A stretch of DNA of 41,685 nt, taken from a virus (lineage: Duplodnaviria; Heunggongvirae; Uroviricota; Caudoviricetes). The stretch lies in the IMG/VR virus record IMGVR_UViG_2541047729_000013; one strand, given 5' to 3'. The translations under genes and the position numbers were made by a program. The number at the start of each line of letters is the position of its first letter. The first letter of the stretch is position 1. The notes beneath the pieces are model-generated. The model made no database searches. It had not been told where the DNA came from and was given only the letters and a program-made list of their open reading frames with translations. Below are positions 3,394-35,444 of the stretch, piece after piece.

Positions 3394-6300
3394 TTAACGT
3401 TCTTCCAGAGACTGAACCCGCTCTTTTATCTTATCCATTTCTCTGCGCTGCCATGCTGCCTCGATATAGAATAAGAGATCAGGTCTGACCCCCCATCTAG
3501 ATCCTGCTGGCGTTATTTCAACGCGCTCAATGATGTCTTCTATTACCATCACTGGATTATCATCCTCATCAACAATGATGCTCCCGTCATTATCAGTCAG
3601 CGGCATTTCCCTTTGGCCAGTAATGACGTCATCATATACTGCGGGATAATCGTCATAGCAAAGAAAGGCATAGCGGCATGTTGTGCTTTCTTCTTCCATG
3701 AGTCCGTGAGAAATAAGAACATCACGAAGTTGCTGCGCGATTACACCATGATGTATCCTCGCCCCTTCTTCCCCCTTTATAGCGACAGCGTTCAGCCATT
3801 TATAAGCGATATACCTGACGTCACCCCAGGCATCCAGCAATGCTTCGTCAGGAGAGACCGGCTCTGTCTTTAATGTTCCGTCACTGGTAACCACAGGATT
3901 GGAGCCAAGATAAACTGTCGAGAACCTGTTTCCCGGACCACCAAGAGCATTTACATTATCAAGATAAGGTTTAACATCTCCGTTCTCAAAAAGATGTTCG
4001 AGTGCGTTATATACCGCGCGACGTGGAGTACTGCTTCCGGAACCATGCAACGTTATCATTGCACCATCTGCTGAAGACGTTGTTTCACCGCCGCTAACGA
4101 TTAATCTCTGAGCGGTAACATCATCAGACGGTACTTTCTTCGCAATAATGGCGTAATTACCCTCAAGTTTGACTTCCGCGCGAACTTGTCCTGATGTACC
4201 TGCATGGACAGTCAGTGACTGGACGGCAACATCATCTGTGAAATCAACGGGTACAGGAACCGTCCTCACGCCTGACGTCGACATAAAAGTAGGAAGCGTT
4301 CTGTTAGGAGTGGCTCCGTAGACAAAATCCCTTGAAACAAATTCTTCCTGTTTAATTTTCACCCTGAAACAATACAAATCAGCCGGGTGACCATCGTGAA
4401 AATAAGGATATTTTCTGTTGTTATCCCCTATGCTCCATGGGTTTAGAAAGTCTTCCCCACCGAAAATGTAGTACAGCCAGTTGTCTTTGATACAAACTGA
4501 ACCAACACCAACCGCAGAGTTAACTATTCCGCCCTGATAAATCTGATCAGTAACATTAACCCACTCTACATTATCCAGACTCCACTCATTGACGTTAACT
4601 CTGGTCATAAATGTTCTTGGATAATTTCCTGCATAACGGTTATCAGGTTCTCCTCCTTCCCACTCACCAAATGCGCGCTCACTGCCAAAAATAATCAGCT
4701 CATCGCCAACTTTGGCAAAAGGAAGGTTTGAGTGATGAACATTATTTGGGAAGCGAAGAGAATTCCATGATGTACCTAAATCAGAGCTTCTGTGCAATGA
4801 ACTACCGGGTTGAGTACTTAATGTCCCCCTGGTCGTCAGATACAGAATGCCATCATAATATTTTACACATGGCTCAGATGCATTCGCCTCATATTCTGCA
4901 GGTATGCGTCTGCGAACAAAGCTACCAGGAGAACCGAAAGCATCAGAGAAATAGAGTATCCCAAGCTCGCGTGGACCAATATCACCATTATGGTAGCCAA
5001 CAGCAAAACTGTTATCGCTAATCGTCGCAAAACTGTGAATCTCAGTAACAGGAGTGCTTCCGTCAACAAAAGAAGGAATAGTTCCAAGACTGGTTTTTCT
5101 CCATGGTGACGAGTGAAATGATGTACCAAAACTCCAGTATCTACCCTCGTTATTCTGATCCACATCCTGGGTATTTTGCGTCGTAACTGTAAAAGTATTT
5201 TTATCAATAACAGTAGTCACCGTCATATTCCCGGTAACACCTGTAACACCAGAGTTTGAGAAGTTGACAAAATCACCAGCAAATAATCCGTGATCAGTAA
5301 TGCGAATATAAGCGACTTGCTGATTTGCTGCTTTCGTTATACCACCATAAACGCGAAGGCTGCGACTCATTGGGCGATCCCACAACTCTGCAACCTGCAG
5401 TTTATTTCCGCTCACGGTCCGCGTCTCAATTACAGCAAAAAGGCGATTTCTGACAACCCCCATACTCATGCAGTGATAGTTAACTGTGGGATAGTTTTCA
5501 TGTAAATCTGTAAGCCATTCCGGCGTTGTCCAGGTCTTCCCGTCATCTCCTGAGCGAACCCATGCAACATGGAGGTTATTTACACCATGGCGGTCTCCAG
5601 CCATAAAAGGCGCATAGATGACATTGTCATATACAAACGTTTTATCCTGCGTCCAGGCGTTGTACCACGGTGTATCTGTAATTTTAAATAACTCTCCCTG
5701 GATAAAATCTTCAGAAGCATAAAAAAGAGGCTGGCCCGGTATTCTCTCAAATAAAAAACGAGCATTTTTAAATCGACTGACATCCGGAAGAGTTGATACT
5801 TTAAAAGTAAGCCCTAATCCGTCAATTTTATAACCTGGAGATGAGGCTTCAAGGCACGCGCTTATTGCAGTGGAATCGTCATTTATACCATCACCAACAG
5901 CTCCAAAATCTTTGGGGCTAATAGCATCACGCATTTTATCCTGGAACGTTCGGTACACAGCCCCAGAACCATACTGAATAAACCAACCAAAACCACCAAC
6001 AACCCCGGAGATTGCAGCATCGACATAATTACGCATTGAGCGATTATTTACAGCGTCCTGCTCAAATGATGGATCTGCAAGGTTAGAAATTTTGTTTTGC
6101 TTTGCATCGTAATATTTTGCAAGCAAAGATGGTTTCATCAATGCACGTCTGAACCACCCAAAACATTGCTGGATCAGCATCGTCAGGTAGTCAAAGGCAT
6201 CTTCATGCACTTCGGGGAAAAATTTTCCCTGATTGCGAAGGTCTGTCTCCTGCACTACATCAAGCACACGATCTATCGTAATTCGCCATCCAGTAGCAAG

Positions 6301-6513
6301 CGGAGACGGAAGAACCACAGAACCGCCACTATAAGTGCCCGCCCCAGTTACCGTATAACCGGTATCCAGAACCAATTCTGTTACGTTTCCGTTCAGGTCA
6401 GACACCTGAACAACCAGGTCTGATTTTCTGAAAACTCGAAAAGTATACGGAAACGATGTCGTAACGCCGTTACCGGTGTATTCGTTGTGGTCAACTTCGG
6501 TTGAGACCGTCAT
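3394..6513 (-). CDS. Tailspike / tail fibre with sialidase-like beta-propeller and C-terminal intramolecular chaperone domain
   Basis: 1039 aa; N-terminus MTVSTEVDHNEYTGNGVTTSFPYTF typical of enterobacterial phage fibre adaptor domains; two Asp-box motifs (SGDDGKTW, SSDLGTSW); C-terminal segment ending ...REMDKIKERVQSLEER resembles the autoproteolytic chaperone of endosialidase-type tailspikes; RBS GGAGAT upstream. Confidence 0.8.
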   Translation of the reverse strand: MTVSTEVDHNEYTGNGVTTSFPYTFRVFRKSDLVVQVSDLNGNVTELVLDTGYTVTGAGTYSGGSVVLPSPLATGWRITIDRVLDVVQETDLRNQGKFFPEVHEDAFDYLTMLIQQCFGWFRRALMKPSLLAKYYDAKQNKISNLADPSFEQDAVNNRSMRNYVDAAISGVVGGFGWFIQYGSGAVYRTFQDKMRDAISPKDFGAVGDGINDDSTAISACLEASSPGYKIDGLGLTFKVSTLPDVSRFKNARFLFERIPGQPLFYASEDFIQGELFKITDTPWYNAWTQDKTFVYDNVIYAPFMAGDRHGVNNLHVAWVRSGDDGKTWTTPEWLTDLHENYPTVNYHCMSMGVVRNRLFAVIETRTVSGNKLQVAELWDRPMSRSLRVYGGITKAANQQVAYIRITDHGLFAGDFVNFSNSGVTGVTGNMTVTTVIDKNTFTVTTQNTQDVDQNNEGRYWSFGTSFHSSPWRKTSLGTIPSFVDGSTPVTEIHSFATISDNSFAVGYHNGDIGPRELGILYFSDAFGSPGSFVRRRIPAEYEANASEPCVKYYDGILYLTTRGTLSTQPGSSLHRSSDLGTSWNSLRFPNNVHHSNLPFAKVGDELIIFGSERAFGEWEGGEPDNRYAGNYPRTFMTRVNVNEWSLDNVEWVNVTDQIYQGGIVNSAVGVGSVCIKDNWLYYIFGGEDFLNPWSIGDNNRKYPYFHDGHPADLYCFRVKIKQEEFVSRDFVYGATPNRTLPTFMSTSGVRTVPVPVDFTDDVAVQSLTVHAGTSGQVRAEVKLEGNYAIIAKKVPSDDVTAQRLIVSGGETTSSADGAMITLHGSGSSTPRRAVYNALEHLFENGDVKPYLDNVNALGGPGNRFSTVYLGSNPVVTSDGTLKTEPVSPDEALLDAWGDVRYIAYKWLNAVAIKGEEGARIHHGVIAQQLRDVLISHGLMEEESTTCRYAFLCYDDYPAVYDDVITGQREMPLTDNDGSIIVDEDDNPVMVIEDIIERVEITPAGSRWGVRPDLLFYIEAAWQRREMDKIKERVQSLEER

Positions 6514-6669
6514 GTTAAATCTCCAGATAGTCGCAGCACCCGTTGCGCCGCATATCTGGTTATTCTATTACCTGGAAAACCACATATGGATAGAAAGGCT
6601 GTAAATACGAATAGATATTACCTTTCAGGTAATTTGCAAAACGTGCTGGATAGCAAACAAATTATTTGC

Positions 6670-6990: not shown

Positions 6991-7497
6991 TTAACAGTCG
7001 TAAAATTCCGGGTCCCACAAACTTGCATCGCGCGGCATGGATTCTAAATTTTTCAGCCGCAAAATTCTGTCACACTCGACAAGAAGTTTTTGTTTTTGTT
7101 CGTCAATTTCTACTTTTTTGTGTGCTGGCTCATCCCAGTAATCCAGAAGAAACGCATGTCGCTCAGACGTTACAAGATAAATCACATACACATCACTGGT
7201 TGGTATTTTTTTATGCTTGTTGGTGGTCTTGTCTTTCTTCCCGGATGCCCAGTTTTTCCAGCATTGTTCCGTACCGCTCTCACCAAACTTGTCAGTATAG
7301 TTTCCGATGTTTACGTGAACGTGGCGTATGTGATATTCCAGCATCTCTTTCGGTGGATCCCGAAACAGAGTGTCCTTTCCGAAATCCTTATGATGACCGT
7401 AGCGCCAGTGATCTATGAACGCGTTTTTGATAGGTATTAGCTCAGGGTCCTTCCCAAAAATTCCAGGGTGAACCAACCCCTGGAATTTATTCAGCAT
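6991..7497 (-). CDS. YafO-like putative toxin (ribosome-dependent mRNA interferase family)
   Basis: Start set at internal ATG (MLNKFQ...), overlapping the upstream gene by about 11 nt; segments PGIFGKD, HIRHVHV and VYVIYLVTSERHAFLL resemble recalled YafO segments PDIFGRD, HIHLANEN and HLVYCQGAFDEQAWLL. Assignment is from memory and needs an HMM search. Confidence 0.4.
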   Translation of the reverse strand: MLNKFQGLVHPGIFGKDPELIPIKNAFIDHWRYGHHKDFGKDTLFRDPPKEMLEYHIRHVHVNIGNYTDKFGESGTEQCWKNWASGKKDKTTNKHKKIPTSDVYVIYLVTSERHAFLLDYWDEPAHKKVEIDEQKQKLLVECDRILRLKNLESMPRDASLWDPEFYDC

Positions 7498-7942
7498 CGT
7501 CGTAGAGCTCCTGAGCCATATCTTCGGCAGTGCGTGCAAACATCCTGCGCGAGATTGCATGAGATTTCTCGACGGACATCTTTGGGACCTCATGCATAAC
7601 ATTTTTGGGAGTTGTGTAATAGCCTATTACAATTTTCACACCTGACTTATGATTAATATCAGCATAATATACTTCTTGTTCAGACGTTTCACGACGAACA
7701 TAATCTGCCAGTTTTCCACATTTAAATTCCCCTCCCTGATGTTTTAAAATCTCCTCAACTGCACTATTTTCAGTGAAATACCGAATAAGAAATTTCTGTC
7801 CAGACTCTTCAGCATGAGGTATAACAGTATTATTGGAAGCCCGAACAATGGCCTTACTCAATATTTCATGGTCTTTATTTTTTTCTGATTTCCTCAAATG
7901 CTGCATTACTGTAGCTCTCTTCGTGTTCACGGGCACCCCCAA
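7487..7942 (-). CDS. Uncharacterised protein overlapping and upstream of the YafO-like gene (candidate antitoxin or partner)
   Basis: 139-151 aa depending on start (track TTG at 7942 or ATG near 7906); acidic C-terminus AQELYDDAE; no recognisable HTH. My reading of the printed sequence near 7858-7862 gave one extra nucleotide relative to the track frame; track coordinates are used. Confidence 0.45.
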   Translation of the reverse strand: MGVPVNTKRATVMQHLRKSEKNKDHEILSKAIVRASNNTVIPHAEESGQKFLIRYFTENSAVEEILKHQGGEFKCGKLADYVRRETSEQEVYYADINHKSGVKIVIGYYTTPKNVMHEVPKMSVEKSHAISRRMFARTAEDMAQELYDDAE

Positions 7943-8038
7943 CTACCTCTAGGGTAAACATTCTATCGAAAGTATACGCATACTGGCAAAAAAATAGGCA
8001 GGTATTTTCTGAAATGGGATCAATCAAACCACATAGGG

Positions 8039-8083
8039 TTGAAATAACGTGAGTTATGCATTTATTATTACCTTTGCGGTAAA
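8039..8083 (+). promoter_or_regulatory. Candidate promoter (TTGAAA-N17-TTATTA) with overlapping ATTACC-N5-GGTAAA operator
   Basis: -35/-10-like hexamers with 17-nt spacing; operator palindrome at 8067-8083 abuts the -10; CCACATAGGG box at 8029-8038 is shared with the modules at 6580 and 26358. Confidence 0.45.
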
Positions 8084-8351: not shown

Positions 8352-9047
8352 ATGACAGCTACAAAAAGCACGTCCATTTTTTCTTTCGAATCCCAAGCCG
8401 ATATACGGGTAATCGTCATTAATGGTGAGCCATGGTTTATCGCTTCAGATGTTTGTCGGGCTATAGGCATAGCAAATCATCGAGATGCTGTTCGAAAACT
8501 TGATGATGATGAGAAGGGCGTCGCTTCAACCGACACCCCTGGCGGTGAGCAAGAATCGATCATCATCTCCGAGTCAGGCCTCTACACACTGATCCTCCGC
8601 TGCCGCGACGCAGTGACACCAGGCACTATCCCCTACCGCTTTCGTAAATGGGTTACAGGTGAGGTTCTTCCTCAGATCCGCCGCACCGGAAGTTACATTA
8701 AAAACTCGCTCCCGCAGGAAGAACGCATAAAGATGGTTGCCGACCAGGTAGCCAACGCCACAGCATCAGCAGTGATGCAGGCAATGAAGATAGAGAACAA
8801 AACCTACAGTGCCCCACTGAAGCCCGGCTACCGCAGCCTGATTCATTCGCCGTCTGGTGTTCTCGGCCTGACGGAGAACTCACTGCTGATGAATCTGCTG
8901 AACCAGTTACAGGAAGACGGGCACGACGTATCGGGCGCGGCGGCGGAGCTGACCACCATGTTCTGCTACATCGTCGGTGTGAGCAAGTGCCTGCGTGATA
9001 TCCAGACGCACGCGGAGTACATCAACGACAAGGCTGGGTTCTTCTGA
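8352..9047 (+). CDS. Bro-N domain antirepressor-like protein
   Basis: N-terminal hallmark IRVIVINGEPWFIASDVCRAIGIANHRDAVRKLDDDEKGV; C-terminal about 65 aa paralogous to the 6709-6966 protein; RBS AAGGT upstream. Confidence 0.75.
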   Translation: MTATKSTSIFSFESQADIRVIVINGEPWFIASDVCRAIGIANHRDAVRKLDDDEKGVASTDTPGGEQESIIISESGLYTLILRCRDAVTPGTIPYRFRKWVTGEVLPQIRRTGSYIKNSLPQEERIKMVADQVANATASAVMQAMKIENKTYSAPLKPGYRSLIHSPSGVLGLTENSLLMNLLNQLQEDGHDVSGAAAELTTMFCYIVGVSKCLRDIQTHAEYINDKAGFF

Positions 9048-9112
9048 CGGGCGGCGGCACATGGATGTGCCTTTAAAATAATCATTGGCGATGTGATGTA
9101 GATTCGCGTAAT

Positions 9113-9129
9113 ATTACCTTACGGGTAAG
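9113..9129 (+). promoter_or_regulatory. ATTACC-N5-GGTAAG operator-like palindrome upstream of the 9188 gene
   Basis: ATTACCTTACGGGTAAG, same family as the immunity-region sites; about 60 nt upstream of the ATG at 9188. Confidence 0.45.
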
Positions 9130-9187
9130 AAAGCGTTTTTAATCTTCCCTTCAAAACGCGTCCTGTAGCCAAACATGGGAGGACGAA

Positions 9188-9820
9188 ATGAAAACAAATA
9201 CAACAAGAAAAGCGATGCCATACATTATCCCAGAAGCAGATTTCGACAGAAAACTGAACATGTCTGAGAAGAACACTAGTCACACCGAAAGCTACTTAGC
9301 GAAAGGTGTGGTTGATTTCGTTCTTCCGGGATTCACAACACCTTATGGTTATCGCCTTGTAAAATCTTGTAATGGCGATCATTACAGAATGATTACTACC
9401 AGCGATACTCCAGAAACGGTGTATGCGGTTAAGTTAATCTTTCGGGAAGATATCGTCGAAGCTAAAAGAACATGTACGCAGATCATGGTATGGCGTACGC
9501 CTAATGTTATTCATGACCGTGCTGTTCATGGTTTGCCTCAGATTTTTTTTCAGTTCTTCCTAGAGCAATATGCGATCGTTGTATCTGATGAGCAACAAAC
9601 AATCGATGGGAGAAGATTCTGGGAAAGAATGATTTCTTGGGCTATAAACACCCCGGGATATAATGTATACGTTTCAGATGGCTCTGAAGAAGATAGACCT
9701 CTTAGCTTCATGACATCATGGGATGATTTCTATAGCCAGTGGGCTGATTTCTGTTGGGGCAGTGATAAAGATGTGCATACCCACAGACTACTGGTTATAA
9801 GCAAAGATAAACTGCATTAA
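9188..9820 (+). CDS. Hypothetical protein (210 aa), accessory/moron gene
   Basis: Strong RBS GGAGG; followed by a clean intrinsic terminator; AT-rich codon usage unlike the structural genes; no motif I can assign. Confidence 0.6.
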   Translation: MKTNTTRKAMPYIIPEADFDRKLNMSEKNTSHTESYLAKGVVDFVLPGFTTPYGYRLVKSCNGDHYRMITTSDTPETVYAVKLIFREDIVEAKRTCTQIMVWRTPNVIHDRAVHGLPQIFFQFFLEQYAIVVSDEQQTIDGRRFWERMISWAINTPGYNVYVSDGSEEDRPLSFMTSWDDFYSQWADFCWGSDKDVHTHRLLVISKDKLH

Positions 9821-9822
9821 TA

Positions 9823-9846
9823 GAAGCCCGCAGCGCGGGCTTTTTT
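9823..9846 (+). terminator. Rho-independent terminator after the 9188-9820 gene
   Basis: GC stem GCCCGC / GCGGGC with short loop followed by TTTTTT. Confidence 0.75.
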
Positions 9847-9918
9847 GTGGACGAAACAAAAGTCAGTGCTACACTCATTGACGCCACATTGAGGTGGCTT
9901 ATAGATGGAAATTTCACA

Positions 9919-10080
9919 ATGAAAAAAGCATTTGCTGCACTGTTCGTTTTGTTGTCTCTGGTAGCTTCAACTCAGGCCTTTGCCGGTCGTTGTCAGCACG
10001 ACAGCGATACTGCTGCTGACGGCTCCCGCTGCGGTGGGCGTTCTGCGGATTCCCGCCCGGGTGGCGGTGGCATTCGTTAA
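9919..10080 (+). CDS. Small secreted peptide (53 aa precursor)
   Basis: Internal ATG of track ORF 9847-10080; canonical signal peptide MKKAFAALFVLLSLVASTQAFA followed by a Gly/Arg/Asp-rich 30-aa part with two Cys; followed by a bidirectional terminator. Confidence 0.4.
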   Translation: MKKAFAALFVLLSLVASTQAFAGRCQHDSDTAADGSRCGGRSADSRPGGGGIR

Positions 10081-10109: not shown

Positions 10110-10961
10110 TCACTGTGCAGTTTTCGCTGATCGATTTTCAGCTCTAAATTCAAGAACCGTTTCAATATTTCTTTCCTTCAGCATATCAATAACATTTTTA
10201 TTCATTTGACTATCACTGGTTAATAACTGGTAAACGTTGCTTCTCTCTTTATCAGAGTTTTCTTTAACAGCTGCTTTGCATGCCAAATGCTTATTGAAAT
10301 TTTCTACATCGCTAGTACAGGAATTTACGGCTGCTGATGAAATATCAGACGCTGAAGAAACACCATCATCCAAACGTTTTATAGCATTTTCTATACATGA
10401 GTTAAGGGAATAAACGACAACTGAGCGATACCCTTCAGACGCACACCATTCTAAATTTCTTGAAGGATCGAGTGGTTTTACTTCGCTGGATTGAATTAAC
10501 TTGTCAAAAACTGACTTATATTCAATCTGTTTTTTATCTATAGCCCATACTTCAGTAGCTGATTTATAATTCCCCGTATGCCTATTAACATCAAATCCAT
10601 GTTTTATAAGCAAATCTGCCCATGAAAGATTTATTGATTCATTGTTATGAGGCCATTTTCCTGTCAGAACCGCCCCCATAGACCCCATATATCCGCCATA
10701 TGATGGTATAGCACCATGGCTCAGTAACTTCTCAGCAACCACAGGGCAATTAATTACATAAGAGGCGTAAAGCCCATTCCATAAAGCCCCTCTATAGTAA
10801 TCGCCACGATTAGGTTCTTTTAAGTCGATAGCCTTTGATAATTGTTCACACGTTTTGCATGCATCAAAGTTATCCTTATTGCATTGCAATGAACTGGCAG
10901 CTGTAGGATTTACAGAGACTATTGAAAGCACTATGCCAAAAAACAAATTTATTTTTTTCAT
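10110..10961 (-). CDS. Secreted Cys-rich protein with ankyrin-like repeats (accessory gene)
   Basis: Signal peptide MKKINLFFGIVLSIVSVNPTAAS; at least 8 Cys; segments ADLLIKHGFDVNRHTG and VAEKLLSHGAIPSYGG resemble ankyrin-repeat consensus; AT-rich; directly downstream (2-nt gap) of the 1129-aa virion protein gene. Confidence 0.55.
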   Translation of the reverse strand: MKKINLFFGIVLSIVSVNPTAASSLQCNKDNFDACKTCEQLSKAIDLKEPNRGDYYRGALWNGLYASYVINCPVVAEKLLSHGAIPSYGGYMGSMGAVLTGKWPHNNESINLSWADLLIKHGFDVNRHTGNYKSATEVWAIDKKQIEYKSVFDKLIQSSEVKPLDPSRNLEWCASEGYRSVVVYSLNSCIENAIKRLDDGVSSASDISSAAVNSCTSDVENFNKHLACKAAVKENSDKERSNVYQLLTSDSQMNKNVIDMLKERNIETVLEFRAENRSAKTAQ

Positions 10962-18141: not shown

Positions 18142-20612
18142 CAGAATCCCCCAACAGTAAGGCGAGGAATAACGGCAAGAACAGACAGCGGCAACGGATC
18201 AAGCTGACGGATTTTTACACGTCCGTTTTTGCCCCAGTTACTGTCCAGTTTCACTTCTACTTTTCCGGTAGCATCATCAACAGGATCATCGTAGAACTCG
18301 AATTCACGCTGTGGATATTCGTACCATTTACCGCCGGGCGTAGTCGCCCAGATGCCGCGACTGGCATTCACAACCAGAGTAACGGAGGGGATCACCTGTT
18401 TTTTGTCCAGCAGCGTTTCCTGTCCGTTAATGTTGATATCCAGTGTTTCGAATTCAGCAGTTATTGGCAGGCCGATGTGCACTACAGCCCCCGGAGATTC
18501 CAGCGTGACGGCACCTCCGGAAACCACTTTCTGTGGTTCCACGTTCGCATCAGAGAGAATGTTTACGGTCTGGCCTTCAAGATGAGACAGGCCTCCAAAT
18601 GTCCGGCGCGCCATCTGCCAGTTCGTGGTGGCCACATTCCTGAGGGATGGCGGGACGTTCCTGTTAGCACGAACCACTACAGCGGTATTGCTGGTTACAG
18701 AAATAATGTCGCAACGTAATTCTTTTGACACTTCATCGCCAGTATCAGGATCAGTTCCGGTATAAGGGAACTGTAGTTGCGCGCCGACATCACTACTGGT
18801 GAAGTACGCACCACCAGAAACACTGATTGTATATTCCGCACGGTAATCCCATTCACCAGAACCACCAGTGATGGTCATCGTTCTGTCAGACGTATTTCTT
18901 CCATCATAGCTAAGGCCAGAATCAACAAAGAAAGCATCTTCATCGCTGGTAAATAAACGGCTGGACAGTCGCTCGATGTATCTCACTGTTTGCCCGTTAA
19001 CGGTTCGGTTAATGACGAAATACACCGCATCTTCATTGCCTTCGCTGATACTGCATGTGCTTTCATATTTTCCGGTACTGGACTGTGGTGCCCATGCAAA
19101 AACCTGTTGATCACGCAAATAGGTCATCACCAGTAATTTACCGTCATCACGAATGCAGAAGGCGCTGGAGTAAGGGACAATAGAGAAGCACCAGTCAACA
19201 ATGCTGTGCTTCTGAAAAAGATGATTGGCAAGGATAGTAAGGTCGTTCCCCTGATAGCCGTCAACATCGAATGAGTAGGCCAGATCACGGACAACACTGC
19301 CTTTCTCCTGGACGAACAGAGCAATATTCGCCACGGCAATTGGTGGGACATTGCTCGAACCATTTGATCCCTGAGAGCTGAATGCAAATGATGATGGAGT
19401 TAATACTTTGTTCTGGTCGCCGGTGATGACGTACTCACCTCCGGAAGTCAGTGCCACCAGCGAACCGACATCAATCAGGTGGCGGATCTCATTAACCTGA
19501 CGCCCGGCATAGGTGTAGATAATTCTGTCGTCATCCTGCGTAGGATTGCTTTTGCCAAAATCCTTATAATCCCCAGTACGGCTGGCCCAGATAGTCTGAG
19601 GGAACGCTGTCGATGCGGCGAAGTAAAGACGTTGTTGATAATAAACAACCGTGCCAGGATAACCGTTAACACTGTTCCAGGCATATTTAGCCCATTTATA
19701 GCTGGCATTATCCTCGCCAACGACCTGCGAAGGGATATAGGAAATCACCTCAGCAGTTGCAGTAGTGCCATTTACAGCAGTTATACGGGCAATGCCAAAA
19801 CCACTGTGCAGATACTCCCACTCAATGCCAGTATCATCATCACCGGATCCGCCCCAGCCATCCCATGATGTGCCTTCTGTATGCGAAGGGCGCAAAGTGC
19901 CTGTTTTGCCTGCTGTAACGGCGCGATAGTAGTTACTGTCTGCACGGCGAATATCGCCAATCGACGTACTCTTACTGGTTTCCCATACCGGCACAGAATC
20001 CACTGCAGGCTGTTCCAGATAGAACAATTTGCCTACCTGCTCCGCGCCAAAAATAGAGGCGCTTGCCGTTAACGTAATTGTCCCGGTGCTGGCGCTGGCA
20101 TAAACCGTCACTGACTCATCAATATTGATATCTTCAAATGGCCCGTTCTTCGTTACCACATCAACCAGTTGCCAGTTGTCATGCGCATAGCGGCGCAGCT
20201 CTTTCGGCGGGTATGCCGGGTGAACCAGCGTAAGCACGTCGGCGCTTTGCGTGAATTTAATTCGGAACAGATCGGCTTCAGTATATGGCGTGGCAATTTC
20301 ATAAATAACATTGCTGCTGTTCAGCACCAACGCACCATCTTTGATAACGCGCATGTACTGGTGTCCGAACTCCAGAGCATAAGTCTGAACCGTCGAGAAT
20401 TGGAACGGGATCAGGCGGCATTTCCGATTTGGGTATTTGGCGGCACCGACAAAACGCGTACCAGGTCGATTCTCAACGCCGCCATACTGCCGCACGATAA
20501 AGTTATCGCACTTGCGCAATGCTACCTGGTACTTCGCCATGTCAATACGCCCGTACAACGACGGTCCAATCTCACCACCGGCAAAGCTGGGCTGGATCCA
20601 ACTGATAGCCAT
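18141..20612 (-). CDS. Tail tubular protein B-like (gp12-like position)
   Basis: 823 aa, immediately after the about 200-aa tubular-A-like gene; size and order as in T7-like tail modules. Confidence 0.5.
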   Translation of the reverse strand: MAISWIQPSFAGGEIGPSLYGRIDMAKYQVALRKCDNFIVRQYGGVENRPGTRFVGAAKYPNRKCRLIPFQFSTVQTYALEFGHQYMRVIKDGALVLNSSNVIYEIATPYTEADLFRIKFTQSADVLTLVHPAYPPKELRRYAHDNWQLVDVVTKNGPFEDINIDESVTVYASASTGTITLTASASIFGAEQVGKLFYLEQPAVDSVPVWETSKSTSIGDIRRADSNYYRAVTAGKTGTLRPSHTEGTSWDGWGGSGDDDTGIEWEYLHSGFGIARITAVNGTTATAEVISYIPSQVVGEDNASYKWAKYAWNSVNGYPGTVVYYQQRLYFAASTAFPQTIWASRTGDYKDFGKSNPTQDDDRIIYTYAGRQVNEIRHLIDVGSLVALTSGGEYVITGDQNKVLTPSSFAFSSQGSNGSSNVPPIAVANIALFVQEKGSVVRDLAYSFDVDGYQGNDLTILANHLFQKHSIVDWCFSIVPYSSAFCIRDDGKLLVMTYLRDQQVFAWAPQSSTGKYESTCSISEGNEDAVYFVINRTVNGQTVRYIERLSSRLFTSDEDAFFVDSGLSYDGRNTSDRTMTITGGSGEWDYRAEYTISVSGGAYFTSSDVGAQLQFPYTGTDPDTGDEVSKELRCDIISVTSNTAVVVRANRNVPPSLRNVATTNWQMARRTFGGLSHLEGQTVNILSDANVEPQKVVSGGAVTLESPGAVVHIGLPITAEFETLDININGQETLLDKKQVIPSVTLVVNASRGIWATTPGGKWYEYPQREFEFYDDPVDDATGKVEVKLDSNWGKNGRVKIRQLDPLPLSVLAVIPRLTVGGF

Positions 20613-26344: not shown

Positions 26345-26424
26345 TATTACCAATTTAACCACATATGATTTATTTATCGTAGATAGTTGACATTTAACGC
26401 ACAAATTATTACCTTTCAGGTAAC
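26345..26424 (+). promoter_or_regulatory. Repeated promoter/operator module (ATTACC-N7-CCACATATG ... TTGACA ... ATTACCTTTCAGGTAAC)
   Basis: Near-identical copy of the module at 6567-6633 (operator core ATTACCTTTCAGGTAA identical); faces the tRNA-Arg gene 320 nt downstream. Confidence 0.5.
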
Positions 26425-28954: not shown

Positions 28955-29625
28955 TGATTGCCATCCTGACGTTCTTTCAGTCTCTTCCTGGCTGCCGCTA
29001 TGCGATCAGCAATTGTCACATTCACATTAACATCCAGGCGTTCTTTGAATGCGTTGACGTCGACGTGCTTACCAATCAGTTCGAGGTTCTTCACCTTGTC
29101 AGGCCATTTAATTTTTTTGAGGATTGTCTCTATCGAATCCTCGTTCATGTTCATGATGGTCGATGACAGATCAAAGCCACTAAGCGTAGTGCGCCAGATT
29201 TTCGGCCACTCGCGGATTGGCTTAAGGCTCCCATCGTCGTTGAGGATGTCGATCACGTCCATCTGGTCGATCTCCACCAGGCGCATGAGAACGTAATCAG
29301 CACTGACGCGCATTCGTTTGTTGCGCTCCTCCATCAACTCGGCAATCCGTTTTTGAATGCGTTCATCGCGCATCATGACACTGGCTTTAACTGCCGCTGT
29401 ATTTGGGGAGAATCCTGCGTTAATCGCTGCCTGAGTCTGGTTTTCAGGCGTTTTGATGTATGACTGGCAATAAGCCTCCTGCATTGCTGTTAGTGGCTTA
29501 AATTGCGTTGATTTGCGTTTATAGGCTTTAGGTTCAGCAGGCATCATAACCACCGTGGTAATAGTTACCGTTGTGGTAATAGTACCATGCAAAATAAAGC
29601 CGCCATAGTTGGCGGCAGTATTCAA
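28951..29625 (-). CDS. Terminase small subunit
   Basis: Basic DNA-binding-like protein immediately upstream of TerL with 4-nt overlap; true start may be the internal Met pair near 29547. Confidence 0.65.
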   Translation of the reverse strand: MNTAANYGGFILHGTITTTVTITTVVMMPAEPKAYKRKSTQFKPLTAMQEAYCQSYIKTPENQTQAAINAGFSPNTAAVKASVMMRDERIQKRIAELMEERNKRMRVSADYVLMRLVEIDQMDVIDILNDDGSLKPIREWPKIWRTTLSGFDLSSTIMNMNEDSIETILKKIKWPDKVKNLELIGKHVDVNAFKERLDVNVNVTIADRIAAARKRLKERQDGNQ

Positions 29626-32304: not shown

Positions 32305-32383
32305 TTTACCTCTGAGGTAATTAAAAACCACATAAGACATGAAATCAATAGAGTTTATAATATTTTGTTACCTAACAGGTAAT
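32305..32383 (-). promoter_or_regulatory. Two operator-like palindromes flanking a candidate internal promoter
   Basis: TTTACCTCTGAGGTAAT (32305-32321) and GTTACCTAACAGGTAAT (32367-32383) between the P-like gene stop and the DUF1064-like start; TATAAT-like element between them. Confidence 0.4.
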
Positions 32384-34570: not shown

Positions 34571-34610
34571 AGCTATTGCCTGATATTTATTTCAGATAAT
34601 AAATATTCAC

Positions 34611-34670
34611 CCATAAGGTAACAAAAATCAAGGATAGTTACCTATGGGGTGCATTTACCTGTTGGGTAAT
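34611..34670. promoter_or_regulatory. Immunity-region operator cluster (OR-like), three ATTACC-N5-GGTAAT-type sites
   Basis: TTCACCCATAAGGTAAC, TTACCTATGGGGTGC and TTTACCTGTTGGGTAAT within the 154-bp repressor/cro-like intergenic region. Confidence 0.6.
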
Positions 34671-34724: not shown

Positions 34725-35309
34725 ATGAAAAGTATCCAGGACGTCCGCAGGCAAAATCTCAACGACTTGATCGACCGTGAATTCAATGGTGTTCAGACGC
34801 GGATGGCTGAAAAACTTGGAACTCAGGCAAATCTGGTAAACCGCTGGGCTCTTGGCAAGAAGGTTATCGGCGACCAGGTTGCACGAAAAATTGAAGCTGC
34901 CGCCAATAAACCCCGTAACTGGCTTGATATTGATCGCTCGCTTTCTCAGGAGGGTTTTCAGCCTGTCGGCCCGAGCGATATAGGTCAGCTGGCGGCTCAC
35001 AACCTGGAACGCTGGATGAGCGAAAGCCGCGACCTTTCAACGCAGGGAAAACTACACCGCGCATCCGGCGTCGCCCAGGTGACAATCAGCCGCCTGTTAA
35101 ACAATGAGGTCAGCGTTTCCATTTCCACCCTGGAGAATGTTGCATCCGCATTCGGGCGTCACGGCTATGAATTACTGATTCACCCGCACGACCCTGCGAC
35201 CATCAACTATGATCGCTCGCGCTACGCATTGTTACCCGAAACCGAGAAAGCAAAGATCGAAAGTTACATTGAATTTGTCATCAACCAGAACGAAAAAAAC
35301 AAACAATAA
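34725..35309 (+). CDS. CI-like prophage repressor without peptidase S24 domain
   Basis: N-terminal XRE-type HTH (TRMAEKLGTQANLVNRWALGKK) and a second HTH-like segment; no Ser-Lys autocleavage motifs; divergent from the cro-like gene; followed by a terminator. Confidence 0.7.
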   Translation: MKSIQDVRRQNLNDLIDREFNGVQTRMAEKLGTQANLVNRWALGKKVIGDQVARKIEAAANKPRNWLDIDRSLSQEGFQPVGPSDIGQLAAHNLERWMSESRDLSTQGKLHRASGVAQVTISRLLNNEVSVSISTLENVASAFGRHGYELLIHPHDPATINYDRSRYALLPETEKAKIESYIEFVINQNEKNKQ

Positions 35310-35365: not shown

Positions 35366-35444
35366 ATTACCTAACGGGTAATTTTTTTAACTCATATCTA
35401 TTGACATCAAACCAGATACGCATAATCATTACCTCAACGGTAAC
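35366..35444 (+). promoter_or_regulatory. OL-like operators and early-left promoter
   Basis: ATTACCTAACGGGTAAT (35366-35382), TTGACA at 35401-35406, ATTACCTCAACGGTAAC (35428-35444) and a further GGTAA half-site, upstream of the first early-left ORF. Confidence 0.55.

Follow-up and report, generated by a model that had tools for sequence, protein, structure and literature searches.

AcrVA5 acetylates Cas12a. The Mom protein of phage Mu is a phage GNAT that modifies DNA adenine using Gly-tRNA (PMC13219725), and Rac of phage phiKMV is a phage GNAT that acts on the alpha subunit of RNA polymerase (PMC7552054). More generally, phage-borne single-gene GNAT-fold proteins serve against host functions or immunity during infection (PMC13219725, PMC7552054, PMC7824862). 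The present analysis concerns a gene for a 210-residue protein (positions 9188–9820, + strand) in a 41,685-nucleotide stretch of Caudoviricetes DNA (IMG/VR record IMGVR_UViG_2541047729_000013), referred to below as the window, which was analysed at its full length. The gene is one of several alternative cargoes of a hypervariable slot, and its promoter carries the predicted operator of the main prophage repressor. Our preferred reading, held tentatively and with somewhat less than even confidence, is that the gene encodes a divergent GNAT-fold enzyme, carried as exchangeable cargo, which would be switched on when the repressor is absent and would act in host takeover or counter-defence.

The 210-residue protein and its predicted fold

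The open reading frame (ORF) at 9188–9820 starts with ATG, ends with TAA followed by an in-frame TAG, and is preceded by a strong Shine-Dalgarno sequence, GGGAGGAC, at 9177–9184. Homologues (63 sequences with 37–99% identity) were found across the Enterobacterales, and the ratio of nonsynonymous to synonymous substitution rates (dN/dS, NG86) was 0.06–0.07 relative to homologues with 83% protein identity, with dS near saturation. We regard it as virtually certain that the ORF is a real gene. Its GC content (40.8%, as opposed to 48.3% for the window) was undercut by just 2.7% of 633-nt windows, in agreement with the atypical composition reported by an earlier, sequence-only reading of this DNA.

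No match for the protein was obtained in Pfam (at E ≤ 1), NCBIfam, PADLOC or the PDB sequences, and searches of the PDB sequences with the single protein and with two family profiles returned empty. The statement of the sequence-only reading that no motif could be assigned was thus borne out at the level of sequence, but not at the level of the fold: structure prediction followed by structural comparison, which it had recommended, revealed a resemblance to GNATs. An AlphaFold2 model built on 43 homologues reached a pLDDT of 81.7 and a pTM of 0.79. Foldseek searches of this model against the PDB yielded a GNAT as every top match, with AAC(2')-Ia in first place, although the matches were weak (E ≥ 0.01, TM 0.3–0.4). 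Searches against viral models yielded matches to uncharacterised phage proteins, followed by proteins designated 'NAT_SF' or 'Acyl-CoA N-acyltransferase' (E values 1e-10 to 1e-4). The predicted model contains the GNAT order of elements, beta1-alpha1-alpha2-beta2-4-alpha3-beta5-alpha4-beta6/7. On this basis, a GNAT-like fold is likely, and the protein, as modelled, is an uncharacterised and very divergent member of a known superfamily. Since the canonical motif is not kept and no family member matches an acetyltransferase model of Pfam, its membership of the superfamily rests on the fold. The earlier reading had named clear homology to a conserved structural or housekeeping protein of phages as the finding that would refute it; no such homology was found.

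Conservation was determined among 135 family representatives and was found for Y79 (94%), Q98 (86%), W102 (96%), R103 (83%), D134 (90%), Q137 (77%), T138 (81%), G141 (82%), F144 (90%), W145 (99%) and Y161 (84%), residues that map onto strand-loop-helix elements of the AlphaFold2 model. Based on the order of secondary-structure elements, the conservation profile and a low-probability hhalign alignment, the putative GNAT core was assigned as follows: beta4 would comprise residues 96–103 (TQ-x-VWR) and lead into the loop G115-L-P117 (G-x-A/P in the wider family); alpha3 would span residues 116–127 (FF..LL); beta5 (130–134) would end in Asp134, the acidic residue kept in 90% of the family; and alpha4 (139–154) would be capped by Q137-T138-x-x-G141. 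The region that would correspond to motif A reads R111-A-V-H-G115-L-P117; in the wider family it consists of G (60%) followed by x-A/P, and the canonical first position is not kept.

The departure of the pyrophosphate-binding motif from the canonical form, together with Phe144-Trp145 at the usual position of the catalytic Tyr on alpha4, would fit a non-catalytic GNAT-like scaffold that acts by binding. Such a scaffold might, for example, inhibit or regulate a protein of the host or the phage, or sense acyl-CoA in the manner of the C-terminal domain, likewise GNAT-like, of mycobacterial ICL2/Rv1916. We consider this quite unlikely, because Y79, Q98, R103, D134, Q137, T138 and Y161 are strongly kept in a very divergent family, a pattern that is more active-site-like than interface-like. 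The chances that the protein is catalytically active appear evenly balanced.

A predicted repressor operator at the promoter

Upstream of the gene lies a sigma-70-like promoter (9085–9114, + strand), read from the sequence, with a -35 hexamer TTGGCG (9085–9090), an 18-nt spacer and a -10 hexamer TAATAT (9109–9114). The -10 hexamer is abutted by an exact copy of the palindrome TTACCTTACGGGTAA (TTACC-TTACG-GGTAA, 9114–9128), which can be extended to ATTACC...GGTAAG at 9113–9129. The promoter of the neighbouring antirepressor gene ant has the same layout, with the final T of the -10 hexamer forming the first base of the palindrome in both cases. Allowing for at most one mismatch, the pattern TTACC-N5-GGTAA occurs at 14 sites in the window, compared with a mean of 0.75 in shuffled sequences, and none of 100 shuffles reached 14. 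The RefSeq record of phage epsilon15 lists five sites of the form ATTACC-N5-GGTAAT, with identical half-sites, which are annotated as 'protein_bind: repressor, lysogeny'. Judged from its sequence, the palindrome is the epsilon15-type operator of the main repressor of the prophage.

The presumed binder of the operator at 9114 is a 194-residue helix-turn-helix protein encoded at 34725–35309 (+ strand; Pfam HTH_3 match), which is 100% identical to phiV10 p40 and 42% identical to the epsilon15 repressor. Copies of the operator flank its gene and are also located at the early promoters. The ORF21 repressor of ZX5 has the same sequence as phiV10 ORF40, and its overexpression abolished free phage and lowered holin transcription by 99.97% (PMC9782041); what has been published for the phiV10-type repressor is a general repression of lytic genes only (PMC9782041). 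Given the operator sequence, control of the 210-residue protein's gene by this repressor is probable. The literature yielded no entry for the accession, for the PHROG number or for the operator string of epsilon15.

Because a main-repressor operator is located at its promoter, the gene is predicted to be silent in the lysogen. Such silence argues against a constitutive prophage defence function and points instead to a function in the early phase of infection or upon induction. It also counts against the view that the gene serves prophage defence or superinfection exclusion, with its expression in the lysogen shielding the host from other phages.

The gene as cargo of an exchangeable slot

Window positions 9048–9847 were compared with the corresponding regions of sibling phages and prophages (loci L003, L004, L033 and L071–L074). 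The stretch from the ant stop codon through a hairpin, the promoter and the operator is common to all of them. Between siblings with different cargo, similarity stops right after the GGTAA half-site and resumes at the terminator, so that the exchangeable cargo is delimited by the operator (9114–9128) on the left and by the terminator (9824–9847) on the right. The slot accommodates at least five unrelated cargoes, one of which is the 210-residue protein's gene. The others encode a 59-residue protein plus a YafO-family toxin (TL-2011b), a 108-residue protein plus a DUF2335 membrane protein (EC.W1-9, TUM9975), a DUF4760 protein (PKF11), and proteins of 55 and 146 residues of unknown function. The literature on DUF4760 and DUF2335 provided no functional lead.

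The promoter occurs in two variants. Variant A drives the 210-residue protein's gene in the window and the 55/147-residue pair in L073, whereas variant B drives the former in L033 and the 55/146-residue pair in L074. Since both variants are combined with the same cargoes, recombination occurs at the operator. Promoter and operator are thus a property of the hypervariable slot and not of the gene. The sequence-only reading had described a self-contained transcription unit in an accessory island, next to a toxin-like pair and an antirepressor, which agrees with the adjoining Bro-N antirepressor gene and the hypervariability of the slot among siblings. It had also credited the gene with its own operator-bearing promoter and terminator; operator and terminator are real, but promoter and operator belong to the slot and are common to other cargoes.

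In complete E. coli genomes, the gene was present in 93 of 5426 and the flank downstream of it in 498 of 5426. With its terminator, deviant GC content and presence or absence among close relatives, the gene fits the features of a moron. A prophage gene expressed for defence in the lysogen would suit this setting, as the accessory slot is hypervariable and adjoins an antirepressor gene and a pair that RefSeq names a toxin. It would also suit the alternative cargoes, among them a YafO-family toxin pair and small membrane proteins, since genes for abortive infection or exclusion are typically of these kinds.

The lambdoid phage LLS (L019) carries a copy of the gene (42140–42772) as the last gene at the right genome end, with a homologous leader. 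An operator at 42053–42067, 87 nt 5' of the gene, is the only exact copy in the 42.9 kb of LLS, the repressor of which is unrelated. As the unit retains leader and operator, it can move as a whole. Either the LLS operator is a regulatory relic that travelled with the cassette, or it is used when an epsilon15-like prophage co-resides.

Leader and terminator

Directly 3' of the ant stop codon (9047), the sequence contains a hairpin, GGCACATGGATGTGCC, followed by TTTAAAAT (9056–9071, + strand), which may act as a weak terminator separating ant from the slot. The hairpin is kept in sibling phages irrespective of the cargo; a scan for the terminator consensus did not list it. At the other end of the unit, directly after the stop codon, a textbook intrinsic terminator, AAGCCCGCAGCGCGGGC plus TTTTTTG (full stretch AAGCCCGCAGCGCGGGCTTTTTTG; 9824–9847, + strand), comprises a 10-bp G+C-rich stem followed by U6. 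This terminator was likewise not listed by the simple consensus scan.

The putative 5' untranslated leader (9133–9184, + strand) harbours an inverted repeat, GCGTTTT (9133–9139) and AAAACGC (9153–9159), and two C-rich boxes, CTTCCC (9144–9149) and GTCCTG (9160–9165), that are complementary to the Shine-Dalgarno sequence. In the minimum-free-energy fold, CUUCCCU pairs with GGGAGG, with a z-score of just -1.3. A near-invariant Shine-Dalgarno sequence, GGAGGAC, with a (G)TCC/CTCC box about 10 nt 5' of it recurs at homologues in unrelated phages (L036–L066, L009, L019). An anti-Shine-Dalgarno hairpin was considered as a conserved structure and rejected: the hand-drawn helix had 75% of its cells paired, showed no covariation, with zero compensatory changes, and performed no better than shuffles. 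RNAalifold applied to the leader alignment gave no consensus structure.

These features bear on the view that the protein is a GNAT-type toxin (as TacT, AtaT and KacT, which acetylate aminoacyl-tRNA) that causes host translation shut-off or abortive infection, with tight control of transcription and translation replacing an antitoxin. The operator and the conserved box complementary to the Shine-Dalgarno sequence would provide a double control, the slot is shared with the YafO toxin pair of TL-2011b, one relative carries an N-terminal MqsA-antitoxin zinc ribbon, and TacT2, KacT and AtaT occur among the low-ranking structural matches of the GNAT-like fold. However, the sequestering hairpin is without covariation support, these toxins are structurally no closer than dozens of other GNATs, and the canonical acetyl-CoA motif is absent. 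In addition, 9048–9187 contains no + strand ORF of at least 40 codons, the terminator follows directly, and the gene also stands alone in other phages. A toxin of this type is improbable.

Distribution of the family

The gene is a single-gene insert in the podovirus represented by the window and in the lambdoid phage LLS. Homologues are found as single-gene inserts, flanked by intergenic spacers on both sides, across several further phage types. In Serratia siphovirus prophages, the homologue separates the tail chaperone gene from the tape-measure gene, and a P22-type antirepressor and Arc are often encoded next to it. In P1-like elements of Citrobacter, it is located between baseplate genes and a gene with an SLT domain; a P1 C1 operator 5' of these homologues was not evident by eye. 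On a Yersinia ruckeri contig, it adjoins ParE-type and HigB-like toxin-antitoxin genes. A family profile search of 1.84 billion representatives returned 897 clusters at E ≤ 0.001, nearly all encoding proteins of about 200 residues, and PHROG 1349 ('unknown function') accommodates the 210-residue protein and each of the 135 family members examined, with PHROG 3307, likewise of unknown function, as a weak match. One distant member is flanked by SbcCD-like genes on one side and by NrdD/NrdG/ThyA/DHFR genes on the other, on contigs of virulent-type phages, and another is encoded by the 227-kb Burkholderia jumbo phage BCSR5.

This distribution cuts both ways for a defence gene expressed in the lysogen. 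The close subfamily is almost confined to prophages and the Yersinia ruckeri homologue stands beside toxin-antitoxin genes, as might be expected of such a gene. Against it stand the members in virulent-type contigs and the jumbo phage, the lack of a PADLOC match for the protein, its relatives and the other cargoes, and the main-repressor operator that abuts the -10 hexamer. We therefore regard this explanation as unlikely.

Parts of the distribution also recall Mom, which uses Gly-tRNA on DNA adenine (PMC13219725): in LLS, the gene closes the right end of the genome, as mom does in Mu, and the distant member lies among nucleotide-metabolism genes. The protein could then be a nucleic-acid-modifying GNAT that transfers acyl or aminoacyl groups to DNA or RNA bases and so evades restriction. 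One relative (P0137) carries a weak SRA-like N-terminal domain (E 0.002, below the Pfam cut-off), which would agree with this; the fusion was not reproduced against PDB sequences and was set aside as a faint hint. Homology to Mom itself was examined and rejected, as hhalign comparison of the family profile with Mom gave a probability of 0.16%, and there is no ORF 5' of the gene and hence no Com-like partner. Chemistry of the Mom type is accordingly improbable for this protein.

Several further observations were made on the family. Tandem paralogues 15 nt apart are present in two contigs (851–1516 and 1531–2148 in L014; 4186–4851 and 4866–5480 in L015), an arrangement that suggests divergence following duplication. 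The family domain also occurs in rare fusions (P0153, P0137, P0150 and P0134), which, besides the SRA-like one, involve an N-terminal MqsA-antitoxin zinc ribbon (Pfam E 3e-20), DUF5397 and an N-terminal region of 300 residues of unknown nature. In the Serratia-type cassettes (L005–L008, L054–L058), a good promoter, TTGAAA-17-TAGTAT, is followed by a palindrome, ACAACCGTAGTTGT, about 80 nt 5' of the homologue (e.g. 5918–5931 in L005), and in a variant of it, ATAACCGTGGTTAT, the symmetry is kept by changes in both arms. This suggests that those phages use another operator; a further copy of ACAACCGTAGTTGT was not found within the 12-kb Serratia-type loci.

Proposed role

In the scheme that we favour, transcription of the 210-residue protein's gene would start at the slot promoter, the -10 hexamer of which is abutted by the operator. 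In the lysogen, the main repressor would keep the gene off. In the absence of the repressor, that is, upon infection of a non-immune cell or upon induction, it would be turned on together with the antirepressor. The protein would then most likely act as an acyltransferase on a macromolecule or metabolite of the host or the phage, using the elements beta4/G-x-(A/P) loop/alpha3 and beta5-Asp134/Q-T-x-x-G/alpha4, with host takeover or counter-defence during lytic development as the outcome. Production of the protein in the absence of the repressor is suggested by the operator at the promoter and by the relatives in virulent-type phages. Repressor binding at 9114, catalytic activity, acyl donor, target and biological role are parts of the scheme that we infer, and a role in host takeover or counter-defence, considered separately, is slightly more doubtful than the scheme as put above.

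A number of observations weigh against this interpretation. Concerning the fold, the structural scores for the GNAT resemblance are moderate, and none of the 135 family members matched Pfam at E ≤ 0.1, an acetyltransferase model included. The hhalign alignment, which placed H114–Q127 on motif A of RimI (Q78–E91), had a probability of just 0.2%; a RimI profile was dropped, as the 120 matches listed were all at least 80% identical and such a profile would have brought no gain over RimI alone. As the canonical Q/R-x-x-G-x-G/A is not kept, cofactor binding is putative and the protein may be non-enzymatic. Concerning control, repressor binding at 9114 is presumed for a predicted site, and the slot promoter agrees with the consensus at 8 of 12 positions, too few to pass the promoter scan, and is thus weak but plausible. 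The hairpin at 9056–9071 is a weak terminator at best, so that read-through from the ant promoter may occur, and in LLS, where the operator meets an unrelated repressor, the gene would escape its control. Concerning the role, PADLOC-DB 2.0 gave no match for the protein, eight distant relatives and nine alternative cargo proteins, while among cultured phages 4 of 50,697 records contained the family (tblastn) and most close homologues are prophage-borne.

The sequence-only reading had pointed to defence or anti-defence. Constitutive prophage defence is disfavoured by the main-repressor operator, and, as no defence or anti-defence family was matched, the proposal as a whole is a guess from context. 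A further-reaching idea, which we put forward as speculative and unlikely, is that PHROG 1349 represents an unrecognised, widespread class of phage GNAT-fold effectors with an unconventional donor or target (e.g. Mom-like nucleic-acid or aminoacyl-tRNA chemistry, or AcrVA5-like acylation of immune proteins), deployed as repressor-controlled plug-in cargo with operator and terminator as recombination boundaries.

If the enzyme is active, it would define a large, uncharacterised GNAT branch found essentially in phages alone (absent from Pfam, with about 900 clusters at 50% identity) and would be a single-gene candidate, readily amenable to study, for an activity in host takeover or counter-defence. 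Whatever the function, the locus is a clean example of accessory-gene exchange between a 15-bp repressor operator and a shared terminator, as evident from the two promoter variants that are shuffled exactly at the operator and from the movement of the whole unit into a lambdoid phage with an unrelated repressor.

Genomic context

The window is an epsilon15/phiV10-like (Uetakevirus-type) E. coli prophage. The region around 9188–9820 is 100% identical to ST95 chromosomes (e.g. IHE3034 and APEC O18), in which the prophage is located between yfgI and guaA, with the integrase gene adjoining guaA. Large stretches of the window are 96–97% identical to phages phiV10, TL-2011b and EC.W1-9. Despite this epsilon15/phiV10-like backbone, the tailspike (3394–6513, - strand) is an endosialidase specific for the K1 capsule.

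The 14 operators (15 nt each) start at 6618, 7943, 8068, 9114, 26409, 29547, 29565, 32306, 32368, 34270, 34607, 34655, 35367 and 35429. They are found at almost every promoter: each of the four accessory units near the tailspike has one (6618, 7943, 8068 and 9114), and the others include those in the OR-like and OL-like regions and at the genes specified below. Several of them abut or overlap a -10 hexamer, and at 32306 and 7943 the spacer holds the ribosome-binding site of the next gene. The OR-like region contains two operators (34607–34621 and 34655–34669) between a cro-like gene (- strand) and the repressor gene, and the OL-like region another two (35367–35381 and 35429–35443), which lie 3' of the latter gene, where the recombination operon has its promoter. 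The site at 6618–6632, between the tailspike gene and a gene for an 85-residue gp19-like protein, matches in position the annotated epsilon15 site 19895–19911 of the RefSeq record. The operators at 29547 and 29565 are situated at the start of the terminase gene, those at 32306 and 32368 after the replication genes, and the one at 26409 lies 5' of the tRNA-Arg gene.

On the upstream side, the gene is adjoined by the Bro-N antirepressor gene ant (stop codon at 9047), whose promoter, TTGAAA-18-TATTAT (8039–8068, + strand), was detected by the promoter scan and is abutted by an operator at 8068–8082. A two-gene unit on the - strand (6991–7942) is preceded by a promoter (7989–7960) and, just 3' of this, an operator with one mismatch (7943–7957). 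This unit had earlier been described as a toxin-like pair. Its distal gene bears the RefSeq name 'YafO family toxin', and the designation is supported by that name only, as neither protein matched Pfam or NCBIfam.

On the downstream side, directly 3' of the terminator, a 53-residue protein with a signal-peptide-like N-terminus is encoded at 9919–10080 (+ strand; PHROG 14503, 'membrane associated protein', moron category). The flank that holds its gene is the one found in 498 of 5426 E. coli genomes, regardless of the upstream cargo. It is followed by a gene for a 283-residue protein (10110–10961, - strand; GC content 36.7%), also with a signal-peptide-like N-terminus, which belongs to PHROG 6118 (unknown function) and had no match in Pfam. 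Sibling phages hold other genes at this variable position.

Comparison with known systems

The closest GNAT structures are those of NatD/Naa40 (4ua3), the C-terminal domain of Rv1916/ICL2 (8g8k), Hat1 (1bob) and AAC(2')-Ia (5us1). Like GNATs, the 210-residue protein is predicted to comprise N-terminal helices, an antiparallel beta meander, beta4-loop-alpha3, beta5-alpha4 and a C-terminal strand. It shares with them a conserved Gly-x-(Ala/Pro) before a hydrophobic helix and, as in RimI (Glu103), a conserved acidic residue at the end of beta5. In contrast to GNATs, sequence profiles detect no similarity, the canonical Q/R-x-x-G-x-G/A is absent, an additional short helix is inserted between beta4 and alpha3, and a 35-residue insert precedes the last strand; unlike in many GNATs, Phe-Trp is found at the position of the catalytic Tyr.

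Among phage GNATs, Mom offers a parallel in organisation, since mom, too, is tightly controlled, and its position at the genome end is matched by that of the gene in LLS, whereas the protein has no sequence relationship to Mom, Rac or AcrVA5. With TacT, AtaT, KacT and ItaT, it has in common the GNAT fold, carriage on a mobile element and a slot that is shared, in siblings, with a toxin-antitoxin pair. It differs from these toxins (about 160–175 residues) in its length of 210 residues and in being without an antitoxin partner and without canonical motif A; in addition, a phage repressor operator takes the place of the autoregulation seen in GNAT toxin systems.

In its genetic organisation, the locus resembles morons and the P22 immI region with ant, forming a single promoter-gene-terminator unit of low GC content that is present or absent among relatives and has an antirepressor as its neighbour. 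It also advises caution, in that not every such unit of a prophage is a moron expressed in the lysogen; the regulatory logic here points to lytic-cycle expression. A classical moron is expressed from the repressed prophage, whereas the promoter of the gene described here carries an operator predicted to be that of the main repressor. Unlike in a classical moron, moreover, promoter and operator are part of the recipient slot, and operator and terminator constitute the two boundaries of exchange.

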